From positions 1-4,587 of IMG/VR virus record IMGVR_UViG_2778261227_000009: a stretch of 4,587 bases of DNA, one strand, 5' to 3'. This document shows, in pieces, positions 535 through 4,587 of this stretch. Source of the stretch: a virus. Lineage: Duplodnaviria > Heunggongvirae > Uroviricota > Caudoviricetes. Both the position numbers and the translations under genes were made by a program. Under the pieces are notes generated by a model. That model saw only the letters and a list, made by a program, of their open reading frames with translations, was not told where the DNA came from and made no database searches. The stretch's first letter is position 1. Every line of letters begins with the position of its first letter.

Positions 535-597
535 GGATATTTATCAGGATTTATCGGTTTCTGCCCACGGACAGGTTTATCTGTTCCGGTCAGTGAC

Positions 598-948
598 TTA
601 AGGTTGTGATTCCGGAGGAGTCTTCAGAGAATCAGTAATTCTTCCTGGTAGCTTTCCTTTGTAGGTTATCCACACATTCTGCGCATCTAAAATTACGGGG
701 CGCTTTTCCGGCGACTGCTCATCCCCTTCACATAACCCGGCAGCAACATCCAGGAAGACCTGTCTGATGCTCCTTCTGGCTGCTGCCTCATAAAACTCCA
801 GCGCGGCACCTTCAACACGGTCCAGCGAGATGTCCAGGTCAAAAATTTCGCCGTCAAAGCGTTTTTTGTCCCGTAACGCTAAAGTTACCGTAACTTTATT
901 CTCAAAATTGCGGATCCCTTTCACAATCAGTTCATAGTTTTGAGTCAT
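598..948 (-). CDS. ydfR: DUF1327-family protein (YdfR-like) of unknown function, embedded between the holin and endolysin genes.
   Basis: This 116-aa ORF starts at ATG 946-948 with GGGGAGAG about 9 nt upstream, and that Shine-Dalgarno-like sequence overlaps the 3' end of the holin gene. The position between holin and lysozyme mirrors the K-12 Qin arrangement essQ-ydfR-rrrQ. The family name is recalled, not searched. Confidence 0.75.
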   Translation of the reverse strand: MTQNYELIVKGIRNFENKVTVTLALRDKKRFDGEIFDLDISLDRVEGAALEFYEAAARRSIRQVFLDVAAGLCEGDEQSPEKRPVILDAQNVWITYKGKLPGRITDSLKTPPESQP

Positions 949-952
949 TGAA

Positions 953-1168
953 TTACTCTCCCCGTGCAGCCTTACGCTTGTCTTCTCTGATTTTGAAGTA
1001 CAGATTTGTCAGATAAGTCAGGAAGCCCAGAACCAGACTCCCCAGTACACCAATCGCAGCCCACTGTGAAGGACTGACCTGATCAAGCCACTGTAAAAAC
1101 CAGTAGCCAGCACTACCTGCTGAGGTGCCATAGGCGACACCCGTTGTTAACTTATCCATGGATTTCAT
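953..1168 (-). CDS. essQ: Class II holin (pinholin) of the phage 21 S21 type, 71 aa, with a dual-start motif (Met1-Lys-Ser-Met4).
   Basis: The translation [71 protein letters not shown] has two transmembrane segments and a charged C-terminus, and closely resembles S21. The ATG at 1166-1168 is preceded by GAGGTGGGG about 2 nt upstream. The longer track ORF (to 1231) starts at GTG and would run through the upstream terminator hairpin, so it is rejected. The symbol is given by analogy to K-12 Qin EssQ. Confidence 0.85.
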
Positions 1169-1203: not shown

Positions 1204-1229
1204 AAATAAAAAGGCCACCTGACGTGGCC
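1204..1229 (-). terminator. Rho-independent terminator between the methyltransferase gene and the holin gene.
   Basis: The minus-strand RNA would be GGCCAC-GUCAG-GUGGCC followed by UUUUUAUUUCC. It begins 6 nt after the methyltransferase stop codon (1236-1238) and lies about 35 nt upstream of the holin start. Confidence 0.6.
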
Positions 1230-1235
1230 ACCAGA

Positions 1236-2288
1236 TTATTTCCCCACCAGCTCGTTTATCTCTTTCACTGTCTGATTAAACCGCTCTGACTCAAGCTCAA
1301 CACCTAAGGCCCGACGCCCCAGCGCCATTGCTGCTTTTATTGTGGAACCGGATCCCATAAAGAAATCAGCAACCAGATCACCAGGTCGACTACTGGCATT
1401 GATTATTTGCCGGAGCATATCCGCCGGTTTCTCGCACGGATGTTTACCCGGGTAGAACTGAACGGGCTTATGCGTCCAGACATCGGTATAAGGCACGGAG
1501 ACTGATACGGAGAAATAGCGCCGGAGAGATTTAAACTCATCCAGCAATTCAGAATATTTGCGATTCAGTGAATCATAAGATGCCACCAGCTGGTGGTGTG
1601 GTTGTTCCAGTTGTTGTTCCTGAAACTTCTCTGCCGCTATACGGGAAAACAGTGCCTGTAACTTCCGATAGTCAGCCTCATTCGGCAACTGCCACTGACT
1701 GGCACCAAACCAGTGGGAAACCATATTTTTCTTACCTGTGGCTTCGGCAATTTGTTTTGCCGTTATACCCAGTTCGGCACGAGCATCCCTGAAATACGAT
1801 ATCAGCGGTGCCATTATGTGCTGTTTGAGTTCCCTTTCTTTTGCTGCATAGCCGTCACTTTTGCCGCGATATGGCCCCTGGTAATGTTCAGCAAACAGAA
1901 CGCGCTCTGTGGCAGGAAAATATGCGCGCAGACTTTCTTTATTACACCCATTCCAACGTCCGGACGGCTTCGCCCAGATGATATGGTTAAGCACGTTGAA
2001 ACGTTCACGCATCATGATCTCAATATCAGATGCCAGGCGATGCCCACAGAACAGGTAAAGGCTTCCGGCAGGTTTTAACACCCGCCAGAACTGGGCCAGA
2101 CAGTGGTCCAGCCACTTAAGGTAATCTTCGTCCCCTTTCCACTGATTGTCCCAGCCGTTGGGCTTCACTTTGAAGTACGGCGGATCGGTAACTATCAGGT
2201 CAATGGAATCATCAGGCAGGGACTGAATAAAATGCAGGCAATCAGCGTTGATTAAATCAACACTGTTTATTTTTACAGTATTTTTCAT
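1236..2288 (-). CDS. Solitary DNA methyltransferase of the beta-class amino-methyltransferase family (N6-adenine or N4-cytosine; N6_N4_Mtase family).
   Basis: The 350-aa protein has motif IV DPPY at residues 35-38 (nt 2175-2186, codons checked by hand), HPCEKP at residues 283-288, and the SAM-binding motif I FFMGSGST at residues 309-316 (nt 1341-1364). Motif IV lying N-terminal to motif I defines the beta class. Between the motifs is a long insert of roughly residues 140-270 containing an HTH-like stretch ([14 protein letters not shown]), which is the presumed target-recognition region. No restriction endonuclease partner is visible in the window. Confidence 0.9.
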
Positions 2289-2437: not shown

Positions 2438-2632
2438 TCATTGCTGAAGGCGTCTGTAACAGCCGAACTGGTTATCTGCCAGCCCCGCCATAACCAGCTG
2501 GGTCAGTATTAACTGACAGCGTTCGCGTGAAAGGTATGTGTTTTGTGCTATCTCCCCGACTGTTGCCGGTTTGCCGTTTAATTCATTAAAAACAACTTTC
2601 GCCGTTTCTGTCATATCTTGCGGTTTTAGCAT
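2438..2632 (-). CDS. Small (64 aa) winged-helix DNA-binding protein resembling the PapI/FaeA family of regulators.
   Basis: The ORF starts at ATG 2630-2632 with AAGGT about 9 nt upstream. The segment GKPATVGEIAQNTYLSRERCQLILTQLVMAGLA resembles the PapI/FaeA core (G-K-x-A-x-x-x-E-I-A ... Y ... R ... L ... AG) as I recall it. No HMM search was run. Confidence 0.5.
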   Translation of the reverse strand: MLKPQDMTETAKVVFNELNGKPATVGEIAQNTYLSRERCQLILTQLVMAGLADNQFGCYRRLQQ

Positions 2633-2753
2633 GTCTTTTTACCTTCATGGTTAACATGACATACCAATAACTCTTGTCTAAAAAGCCAGCAAGATAAAAA
2701 GTCAGTATTCACGACCACCAGCGTGTTTACCGTACTGCACCAATGTTTAATTT

Positions 2754-2777
2754 ATAAAAAAACCGCGAGAACGCGGT
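2754..2777 (-). terminator. Rho-independent terminator downstream of the 176-aa ORF.
   Basis: The minus-strand RNA would be ACCGCG-UUCU-CGCGGU followed by UUUUUUAUAAAUU: a 6-bp GC-rich stem, a 4-nt loop and a U6 tract. It lies 35 nt after the ORF stop at 2813-2815. Confidence 0.6.
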
Positions 2778-2812
2778 AAGTATTGTTAAAAAAAACAGTA
2801 ATTTCACTCAAC

Positions 2813-3343
2813 TTATTTAATACATTCTTTTGCTTGCGCATAATAAATTTTATGAGTATTAGCAAGCTTAACGAAGTTATACTTAACTGCCCCTAACAGG
2901 GTTCCAACTCTTGTATGCCCTTCCATTAAATGAAGCCCTGTTGTATTACTTTTCAGCAAAGCTCGATCTATAAAAAATGGAGGTTTGCACCATGTGCCAA
3001 AATTACACCAATGCGCTTTTATTTCATCATCCATAAATACATCGCCTTTACGGGTTGTGAAATCTTCAACGACCTCATGCAAAAAATCAGGGTAAGTAGC
3101 ATTATCCCCGATAGTTAAAAAATTTTTAGTGGGAAGTTCAATCAATTTCCATTCGATTTGGTCAATATTAAGATTCCCATAAAGCTCCTGAAATCTGTCA
3201 TAACCTGCCAATCCATAATAAATCTCCTGAATTACAGGAGTGGGTGCGGCGATAGAATATTGCTCACGAAGTATTCTTTCAGCCTCAGGAGCTTTAAATA
3301 TGGGTCTTTCTGAGAAAATAGGCAAAAGATCTCGGTATAACAT
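2813..3343 (-). CDS. Hypothetical protein of 176 aa encoded by an AT-rich, compositionally foreign gene (cargo/moron). Its function is unknown.
   Basis: This is an ATG-initiated 531-nt ORF with GGGGA 7 nt upstream of the start. Manual counts give about 30% GC for 3121-3180, against about 55% for 1381-1440 in the neighbouring methyltransferase gene. The translation has no hydrophobic signal peptide or membrane segment. An intrinsic terminator follows the stop codon. I do not recognise the protein family. Confidence 0.65.
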   Translation of the reverse strand: MLYRDLLPIFSERPIFKAPEAERILREQYSIAAPTPVIQEIYYGLAGYDRFQELYGNLNIDQIEWKLIELPTKNFLTIGDNATYPDFLHEVVEDFTTRKGDVFMDDEIKAHWCNFGTWCKPPFFIDRALLKSNTTGLHLMEGHTRVGTLLGAVKYNFVKLANTHKIYYAQAKECIK

Positions 3344-3372
3344 CCATATCCCCGTGTAAGAAAAAATAATTT

Positions 3373-3392
3373 AACCCGCTCGGCGGCGGGTT
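3373..3392 (-). terminator. GC-rich stem-loop (AACCCGC / GCGGGTT, 7-bp stem) between the candidate promoter and the 176-aa ORF. It may be a tR'-like terminator or a 5'-leader hairpin.
   Basis: A perfect 7-bp inverted repeat is visible in the sequence. On the minus strand it is followed by AAATTATTTTTT, so the U-tract is not directly adjacent to the stem and terminator strength is uncertain. Confidence 0.3.
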
Positions 3393-3437
3393 CTTGGACT
3401 TATCAACGGTAGACATACAAAGCCCATCGTTGGGAAA

Positions 3438-3497: not shown

Positions 3498-4250
3498 TTA
3501 TCTCGTCACCTTTCTCAATTGTGCTTCAGCGTAAGCTTCTTCCTGCCAGCACTTTGTAACCAGTTTATCAATGACATCTGCATACCCCTTGTACCACTGA
3601 TAATCCGTCAGGTTCGGTACCAGTTTCTGGACATGATGCCGCGCCAGTGTGGTCGGTAAACGGCTAAACCGATTTCCATTACAACGCCCACAAATCTTAT
3701 AAACCGGCGCGCCATGAAGCCGGGTTCTTTTTTCATCCAGGACAATACCTTTACCCTTACACCCTCTGCACGCTGTGCTGACTTCTCCCTTACCATGACA
3801 ATGCTGACATAGTTCCTTCACCCACTCTTCCTTGATAACAGATTCCCCGCTTCTGGAGTGTTTTACCACCTCGCGCAATACATCATGAAATCCAGTACCA
3901 GCACAATGCTCACAGCGAGCCTTACTTGCCGCAGACCTGGAATAATCAGCAAATGCAAAATTCACAAGGTAAGGGATGATCTGTAACCGGGTTTCTTCAC
4001 TCAATTTATTCAATGTCGGGTTATCCAGTGCCATCGCGTAATTGAGCAGACCTTCAATCGCAAACTGAGGATCCTGAACACCAACTTTTGCCAGAAATAA
4101 GGCAAAACCCAGTGGTGCTTTCGACTGCACCATCCCCTGCGCAGCCATCACATCCGTAATCGTTAAACCACCAGAGCCTGTCGCCGGTGCGTCATCGCTC
4201 AATTTTGGAGATTTTGGGGAGTAATATTTTGGTAAGGCTTCAAGGTTCAT
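3498..4250 (-). CDS. quuQ: Late-gene antiterminator Q (QuuQ-like, about 250 aa) with four CxxCxGxG zinc-finger-like repeats.
   Basis: The protein is Cys/His-rich with four DnaJ-like repeats (CEHCAGTG, CQHCHGKG, CRGCKGKG, CGRCNGNR). It sits immediately upstream of the cargo and lysis genes, as Q does in lambdoid phages. The track ORF (3498..4292) begins with a GTG codon and would overlap the upstream gene by 29 nt. The first ATG, at 4248-4250 (MNLEALPKYY...), is preceded by GTGGAGAACGAGC as a Shine-Dalgarno-like sequence and leaves a 13-nt gap to the upstream stop. The symbol is given by analogy to K-12 Qin. Confidence 0.7.
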   Translation of the reverse strand: MNLEALPKYYSPKSPKLSDDAPATGSGGLTITDVMAAQGMVQSKAPLGFALFLAKVGVQDPQFAIEGLLNYAMALDNPTLNKLSEETRLQIIPYLVNFAFADYSRSAASKARCEHCAGTGFHDVLREVVKHSRSGESVIKEEWVKELCQHCHGKGEVSTACRGCKGKGIVLDEKRTRLHGAPVYKICGRCNGNRFSRLPTTLARHHVQKLVPNLTDYQWYKGYADVIDKLVTKCWQEEAYAEAQLRKVTR

Positions 4251-4263
4251 GCTCGTTCTCCAC

Positions 4264-4587
4264 TTACGCCAGTACGCCAATTGCCAGCGCACGATCGATA
4301 AAACGAAATATCAGCTCCAGCTGAGAGCCATACTTCTCTTCAAATGCCACGGTATCCGCATGCAGCTCGTCGTGATGCTTTCTGCACAAAGGCAACACAA
4401 AGAGGTCATGCGCTTTTGTACCCATTCCCCCCTGACCGTGGCCTATCAGGTGGTGGGGATCATCAGCAGGTTTTCCACAACATGCACACGGCTGTGTCTT
4501 AACCCAGCGTGTGTACTTTTCATTAACCCAGCGGCGACGTTTTGGGCGTAACATAAAAGACTCCGGCGACTCCGGATCCACTTTCAG
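4264..4587 (-). CDS. C-terminal part of a phage nin-region protein with an HNH-like Cys/His motif (DUF968 / YdfU-like). The 5' end is truncated by the window edge.
   Basis: The reading frame is open to the window edge, with no stop between 4582 and 4587, and the apparent first codon at 4579-4581 is GTG, so the gene most likely starts upstream of the window. The translation contains PCACCGKPADDPHHLIGHGQGGMGTKAHD...LPLCRKHHDELH, a zinc-ribbon/HNH-like motif. The stop is at 4264-4266, 13 nt upstream of the Q start. Naming the family DUF968 is from memory and has moderate reliability. Confidence 0.65.
   Translation of the reverse strand: MKVDPESPESFMLRPKRRRWVNEKYTRWVKTQPCACCGKPADDPHHLIGHGQGGMGTKAHDLFVLPLCRKHHDELHADTVAFEEKYGSQLELIFRFIDRALAIGVLA

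Follow-up and report, generated by a model that had tools for sequence, protein, structure and literature searches.

We found that the 116-aa open reading frame at positions 598-948 (minus strand) of the window, a 4,587-nt stretch of viral DNA analysed over its whole length, is by its sequence a member of the YdfR (DUF1327) family from a lambdoid prophage of Escherichia, located between the holin and the endolysin of the lysis cassette. In the reading that we tentatively favour, its product lies outside the core lysis machinery and is an accessory protein, expressed late, with host RNase E and/or RNA as binding partners. The DUF1327/YdfR assignment made in the original prediction held: Pfam family PF07041 matched residues 1-112 with 144.3 bits against a cut-off of 25 (E 1.4e-42), and the ORF also matched PHROGs 2091, 406, 1085, 2735 and 34145, all of them without known function. 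Every gene of the window is encoded on the minus strand, and three of them are consecutive, namely the holin (953-1168), DUF1327 (598-948) and the lysozyme (1-534). A chromosomal prophage of E. coli C311 carries a gene 100% identical to the window DUF1327 gene. The genes of that locus are labelled ‘class II holin family protein’, ‘YdfR family protein’ and ‘lysozyme’ in RefSeq, and the Rz and terminase genes come after the lysozyme.

The two flanking genes were also as predicted: on the evidence of Pfam, hydropathy and the annotation of the 434 record, one encodes an S21-type (pin)holin and the other a lysozyme whose N-terminus is SAR-like. The holin (71 aa, minus strand, class II, pinholin type; PF04971, E 3e-35; phrog_20/9876 ‘holin’) has dual starts (M-K-S-M, with M1 at 1166-1168 and M4 at 1157-1159) and a hydropathy peak at residues 36-54, and its first transmembrane segment, judged by eye from the sequence rather than computed, is weakly hydrophobic and rich in Gly, Ala and Ser; the label ‘pinholin’ appears reasonable by homology. 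The lysozyme (177 aa, minus strand, Qin/933W R type; PF00959, E 4e-24; phrog_7 endolysin) shows the motif E-x8-D-x5-T, read directly from the translation, and residues 9-27 (LSAAVLALIAVGAPAPDIL, nt 454-510) form an Ala/Gly-rich, hydrophobic stretch with a Kyte-Doolittle value of 1.87. By homology, this N-terminus would be consistent with a signal-anchor-release (SAR) endolysin. Upstream of the three genes lies a Q-type antiterminator (3498-4292, minus strand; PF03589, E 2e-53), named ‘antitermination protein ydfT’ by RefSeq in the identical C311 locus; by gene order, it controls the late transcript of S, DUF1327 and R from upstream. Between the methyltransferase stop and the holin start, a terminator-like hairpin with a T-run (GGCCACGTCAGGTGGCC, 1213-1229, minus strand) is found at a position equivalent to that of an annotated terminator in phage Ayreon; from the gene anatomy, we infer that it puts the lysis genes under Q-dependent read-through.

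The holin-DUF1327-lysozyme arrangement is already known and has long been annotated in the Qin prophage of K-12 MG1655, where essQ-ydfR-rrrQ-rzpQ/rzoQ lie downstream of ydfT (Q). Similar to the window, Qin combines an S21-type holin (essQ), ydfR and a 177-aa lysozyme (rrrQ) with a Shine-Dalgarno (SD) sequence inside the holin gene at the junction. K-12 YdfR (b1555, P76160, PF07041, RefSeq ‘YdfR family protein’) is 81% identical to the window protein over residues 1-74 (60/74 identical, 71/74 or 96% similar, no gaps). However, it ends in an unrelated 29-aa C-terminal tail (VESYLQHQYSFKIENPANKHERPHHKYI/L) and its stop overlaps rrrQ (gap -4), whereas the window protein carries a ‘PEKRPVILDAQNVWITYKGKLPGRIT..ESQP’ module and is separated from R by a 63-nt gap. 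The same gene order was found in H-19B, BP-4795, YYZ-2008, mEp460 and Stx1a/Stx2c phages, with 78-95% DNA identity to the window region. The tail variants of these phages differ (mEp460, 104 aa; Stx phages, 112-114 aa; Stx1_499, up to 263 aa), some phages of the H-19B/BP-4795/mEp460/Stx group carry an additional convergent ORF, unlike the window, and the 1998 record of H-19B leaves the DUF1327 ORF unannotated.

The earlier statement that S and R are usually adjacent agrees with the cassettes compared, as R comes directly after S in 933W, 434, Ayreon and IdasGreatGrand. In the latter three, a 165-aa R overlaps the S stop, and in 933W a 177-aa R begins 4 nt past it. The phage 21 type, 434 and 933W cassettes share their holin family with the window, and 933W additionally shares the R family and the S-terminal SD with its 4-nt spacer, but R directly follows S in all of them; DUF1327 is therefore not needed for a complete cassette. 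The gene is also optional by number: in the phage collection, an S21-type holin was present in 438 records and a DUF1327 homologue in 101, such that about 77% of the S21-type-holin records are without the gene, both figures being separate counts of which no intersection was taken. The 101 records include H-19B, BP-4795, YYZ-2008, mEp460 and many Stx1a- and Stx2c-converting phages. Among complete E. coli genomes, 4349 of 5426 contained DUF1327-homologous DNA, at up to 10 places per genome and 8616 places in total. The family as a whole is small, with 296-358 clusters among 5.8 billion proteins and 65 representatives at 50% identity among 1.84 billion, and a scan of one genome per species returned it only from Escherichia, Shigella and two MAG contigs. 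Near-identical E. coli prophage lysis cassettes were seen on contigs labelled as a Veillonella parvula MAG and a Bacillota MAG (L014 and L016), and a protein labelled Enterococcus faecalis (P0071) likewise comes from a near-identical E. coli prophage cassette; these labels most likely reflect binning or assembly contamination.

We confirmed that the ribosome-binding site of DUF1327 overlaps the 3' end of the holin gene. The SD sequence GGGGAGAG (956-963, minus strand) lies within holin codons 69-71 and is followed by the holin stop TAA (953-955), a 4-nt spacer (949-952) and the DUF1327 ATG (946-948); its computed duplex with the anti-SD amounts to -8.5 kcal/mol. With so strong an SD within the end of the holin gene, DUF1327 would be made together with the holin. 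Overall, 97 loci were inspected (80 from IMG/VR, 8 from species-representative genomes, and nine, L001-L009, from phage and E. coli collections plus contig look-ups), and the position relative to the holin was evaluated only where upstream sequence was present. In 89 of about 93 evaluable loci, a count to which the 80 IMG/VR loci do not contribute independently, being near-identical to the query in the N-domain, the SD element and its spacing were identical and DUF1327 started 219-220 nt past the start and 3-4 nt past the stop of an S21-type holin. One further locus had a holin remnant upstream of DUF1327. The element GGGGAGAG-TAA-N4-ATG serves R in 933W and DUF1327 in the window, and any gene that comes after S would thus inherit the S-embedded SD. 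Holin-DUF1327 fusion ORFs that match both PF04971 and PF07041 also occur in the databases (P0016, P0032, P0040, P0105 and P0113; e.g. ‘...RKAARESNSMTQ...’). One changed base at the GGAGAGTAATTCAATG junction would be enough to create them, and either sequencing error or natural read-through may lie behind them.

The DUF1327 protein is modular and consists of a conserved N-domain with swappable C-terminal tails. Residues 1-75 form the N-domain, which is conserved across the family (alignments A1 and A2) and was modelled by AF2 from a 40-sequence alignment as three strands and a long helix (beta-beta-beta-alpha), with a pLDDT per 10-residue block of 60-83 over residues 1-70 (66-83 for residues 1-60) and below 50 from residue 69. 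Past residue ~75 the tails are unrelated to one another: the 29-aa tail of K-12, ‘PEKRP..TPP’ followed by ESQP (window) or KW, and coiled-coil modules of ~60 aa. In the window protein, residues ~80-113 make up the second module (PEKRPVILDAQNVWITYKGKLPGRITDSLKTPP), which precedes the tail ESQP. Across the family the length ranges from 72 to 287 aa, the longest forms having 263-287 aa. With a pI of 5.2, a highest 19-residue hydropathy of 0.69 and no hydrophobic segment, the window protein is a predicted soluble, acidic, cytoplasmic protein of ~13 kDa.

The DUF1327 coding sequence is under purifying selection, with a median pairwise dN/dS of 0.30 in the N-domain (holin, 0.087; lysozyme, 0.057). 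A chance ORF or a decaying pseudogene was considered and ruled out by dN/dS, by conservation and by Pfam-level matches at 31-39% identity in other contexts. Evolution faster than that of the neighbouring genes, the swappable tails and the up to 10 copies per genome are in the style of a host-interaction gene. Neither a profile search of PDB sequences nor NCBIfam gave a match to the DUF1327 protein, and the PADLOC-DB defence models (E <= 0.1) matched neither the window protein nor three longer variants. A 3128-aa G2F-repeat protein (P0160) with six N-domain matches (~32% identity, E 7.6e-9) was judged to be a repeat or compositional artefact.

Four members above the Pfam threshold sit outside the slot between S and R. 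P0175 (31% identity) is flanked by minor-tail and tail-L genes and P0170 (39% identity) by tail-I-like and J-like genes (tail clusters, loci L006 and L007), P0158 is encoded directly 3' of an Rz gene (L008), and the member at L116 is found among DUF6645, KilA-N, metallopeptidase and DUF2280 genes, where a search within 3 kb found no recognisable lysis gene. The N-domain is conserved at the protein level down to 31-39% identity in these other genomic contexts. As distant members occur outside the lysis slot, the linkage of the family to lysis is positional and not obligatory. A lack of linkage to lysis genes in other genomes, which the original prediction had named as counting against it, was accordingly found for the distant members (tail clusters, post-Rz and L116) and not for the close relatives, which are holin-adjacent. 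Co-occurrence with holin and endolysin is likewise not obligatory, given 101 vs 438 phage records (separate counts) and the members in tail clusters.

That the function of the gene was not established, as had been stated, matches the literature: ydfR was counted as uncharacterised in the 2024 y-ome survey (PMC11551758), and the first clue is the RNase E binding reported in 2026 (PMC13232886). The sole substantive study of YdfR (Göpel et al., RNA Biol 2026; PMC13232886) used RNase G as the bait of a BACTH screen, from which residues 1-72 were isolated three times; this fragment gave stronger two-hybrid signals with RNase E constructs than with RNase G. The full-length protein gave a positive signal with Rne1-597, Rne1-598 was eluted together with Strep-YdfR, and the Strep-YdfR eluate contained ~330 ng/ul of DNase-resistant nucleic acid, compared to <=11 ng/ul in the controls (PMC13232886). 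Few transcripts were altered by YdfR overproduction (PMC13232886), which argues against a global effect on RNase E. These data concern the K-12 allele and come from two-hybrid assays and in vivo co-purification, and not from nuclease-treated binding in vitro (PMC13232886); the contact with RNase E could thus be RNA-bridged, and a contaminating RNA-binding protein in the eluate could not be excluded by the authors (PMC13232886). Göpel et al. draw no tie to the lysis cassette and call the neighbours genes of unknown function (PMC13232886). Overall, the binding of RNase E and RNase G and the co-purification of RNA point away from the lysis machinery.

These findings, together with the anatomy of the cassette, suggest how an accessory protein directed at RNase E and/or RNA would work. 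Its gene would be expressed from the Q-dependent late transcript, to which ribosomes would be brought by the strong SD in the last three holin codons. The N-domain (~75 aa, three strands and a helix) would, by homology, be the working module, as the corresponding K-12 region, to which it is 81% identical, appears to contact the N-terminal, catalytic half of RNase E and also, though less strongly, RNase G. If the window allele does the same, it may adjust how certain transcripts are processed or degraded late in infection, and it would be no structural part of the pinholin/SAR-endolysin/spanin machinery. A place outside the core lysis machinery is argued for because the gene is optional with the S21-type holin and because members are found in tail, post-Rz and non-lysis loci. 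Protein regulators and phage effectors of RNase E include RapZ, RraA and RraB as well as T7 gp0.7, phiKZ Dip and T4 Srd. The window protein has no sequence or fold homology to any of these six. The likeness to RapZ is one of behaviour, YdfR binding the catalytic half of RNase E and pulling down RNA (PMC13232886, in which RapZ and RraA also feature). None of the fold and sequence comparisons separated the competing functional readings.

An alternative explanation, possible but in our view rather unlikely, is that the gene is a mobile accessory ‘moron’ with a function unrelated to lysis or RNase E (for example in counter-defence, in the exclusion of superinfecting phages or as half of a two-gene module), which occupies the space between S and R as a recombination hot spot via the conserved flanks. 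The site is a recombination slot between two highly conserved genes: R begins 307 to 1303 nt past the DUF1327 start, with both flanking genes conserved, and the space between S and R behaves like a hot spot for insertions. In many cassette types, a small convergent ORF comes right after DUF1327, sometimes overlapping its 3' end (L010, 4311-4589; L002, 3458-3718; L007, 5282-5506; L008, 768-1328; all minus strand). These ORFs belong to different PHROGs (2411, 2572, 6806 and 18578, all of unknown function), and a single shared partner family was rejected, there being no cross-matches except for the L004/L006 pair. The 72-aa form of DUF1327 (phage Evi) was paired with a convergent phrog_25324 ORF of ~98-100 aa in 14/14 loci and in three contexts, i.e. 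the slot between S and R, between tail genes M and L, and at a locus without recognisable lysis genes; the partners of Evi and of the tail-cluster locus are 61% identical. From its recurrence, this pair looks like a mobile two-gene module. Its sites are L004 3001-3540, L006 449-1001 and L105-L116. The tiny size of the family, its near confinement to Escherichia and Shigella and a dN/dS above that of its neighbours also fit a moron. However, no PADLOC model was matched, the 116-aa type of the window has no convergent partner ORF, and the gene shows late-operon orientation with a strong coupled SD, whereas classic lysogenic-conversion morons are on the opposite strand with their own promoter. 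The moron explanation moreover overlaps the favoured one, as RNase E binding could itself be a host-directed function.

T4 RIII and P1 LydB are cytoplasmic antiholin cofactors or holin modulators, and DUF1327 resembles them as a small soluble protein encoded beside or expressed with the holin. By this analogy, it might regulate lysis timing from the cytoplasm: bound to the cytoplasmic part of the pinholin (its C-terminal tail) or of the SAR endolysin (its N-terminus), it would make triggering later or sharper. We consider this unlikely. In its close relatives, DUF1327 starts 3-4 nt past the S21-type holin and uses the holin-internal SD (89 of ~93 evaluable loci), the same 177-aa lysozyme type is always next, the stop of K-12 ydfR overlaps the rrrQ start, and R is without an SD in DUF1327 cassettes. 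The Keio deletion of ydfR was positive in a CPRG screen for envelope leakiness, as was ydfU of the same prophage (PMC3879167, supplement files 2 and 5); ydfR is absent from the main text of that study. We suspect that in this mutant the kan cassette has a polar effect on rrrQ, the SAR endolysin gene downstream, but the phenotype could alternatively reflect a real loss of a lysis brake. Literature matches to essQ and rrrQ were mostly unrelated acronyms. The absolute tie of all close relatives to the S21-type holin and the Keio leakiness would also fit a lysis-related role. However, hydropathy gave the window protein no membrane or periplasmic segment of the kind typical of RI, S21-71 and releasin, and Pfam and PHROG searches placed it in none of the lysis-regulator families (S21-71, T4 RI/RIII, P1 LydB and Mu releasin) and found no sequence relationship to RIII or LydB. 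In addition, cassettes of the same holin type are complete without DUF1327 in ~77% of phage records (separate counts), so that its own holin family can do without it, a single N-domain allele (100% identical) occurs with holins 79% and 96% identical to that of the window, and other members are encoded in tail clusters and further non-lysis contexts.

The start of R differs between cassettes with and without the gene. In the window, a 63-nt spacer (535-597, minus strand) separates the DUF1327 stop from the R start, and comparison of leaders across loci defined its final 22 nt, CGATAAATCCTGATAAATATCC (535-556, minus strand), as an R leader without an SD. This leader is kept in most cassette types, and only the last ~10 nt are common to the K-12 type; counterparts were seen at L099 2700-2723 and L098 5058-5080. 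The anti-SD duplex for R was +0.3 kcal/mol in the window vs -8.5 kcal/mol in 933W, and +0.3 to +1.1 kcal/mol in all DUF1327 cassettes. Where DUF1327 is present, R is displaced behind this conserved SD-less leader, and the DUF1327 cassette may change the holin:endolysin expression ratio. RNA folding of the 63-nt spacer was no better than that of shuffles (z 0.16), an Rfam search of the window at E <= 1 matched no family, and a search for a terminator between DUF1327 and R found none.

Since the endolysin is without an SD in YdfR cassettes, YdfR could control late or lysis mRNA post-transcriptionally. Its N-domain would target RNase E/G with exchangeable tails and would, for example, protect the S-ydfR-R message or direct its cleavage, such that host RNA decay is linked to lysis timing, and the short form with its phrog_25324 partner would be a mobile two-gene version; taken together, we regard this proposal as quite doubtful. 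Improbable, finally, is a cis effect in which the insert serves as translational insulation: R would lose the strong SD embedded in S, endolysin would drop relative to holin, and the protein would matter little. This would fit the one GGGGAGAG-TAA-N4-ATG element serving R in 933W and DUF1327 in the window, the weak R duplexes and the SD-less leader of which ~10 nt extend to the K-12 type, but sits poorly with purifying selection on the coding sequence (dN/dS 0.30) and with N-domain conservation at the protein level to 31-39% identity elsewhere, for which a pure spacer has no need, and the leader conservation may just mark a recombination boundary.

The DUF1327 gene is present in ~80% of complete E. 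coli genomes, often in multiple copies, and in many Shiga-toxin phage lysis regions. If the RNase E/RNA-binding reading is true and RNA decay is modulated late in induction, the protein would represent a novel type of host-takeover factor in temperate phages; late-gene expression and lysis timing could be influenced and, with stx on the late transcript of Stx phages, toxin expression could change as well. Otherwise, the gene would be another accessory gene in a recombination hot spot. New here are the S-terminal SD common to these cassettes with the SD-less R leader, the modular tails, the non-lysis contexts of distant homologues with the co-travelling partner ORF, and the connection of the lysis-cassette position to the 2026 RNase E data.

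The remainder of the window holds further accessory genes. A DUF968/HNH gene (4264-4581, minus strand) is cut by the window end, and a terminator-like hairpin follows Q at 3373-3392. Just downstream of Q, an AT-rich ORF of 176 aa (2813-3343, minus strand; phrog_8867, no Pfam match) is contained in an AT-rich island (2550-3400; GC 0.36-0.37 vs ~0.49 elsewhere) and flanked by the hairpin at 3373-3392 and a second terminator-like hairpin at 2762-2777; from this composition and setting, it looks like a separate moron. A TrmB-like ORF (64 aa, 2438-2632, minus strand; phrog_331) and an N6/N4 DNA methyltransferase gene (350 aa, 1236-2288, minus strand) occupy the part of the late transcript from Q to the holin, a layout common to mEp460 and Ayreon.
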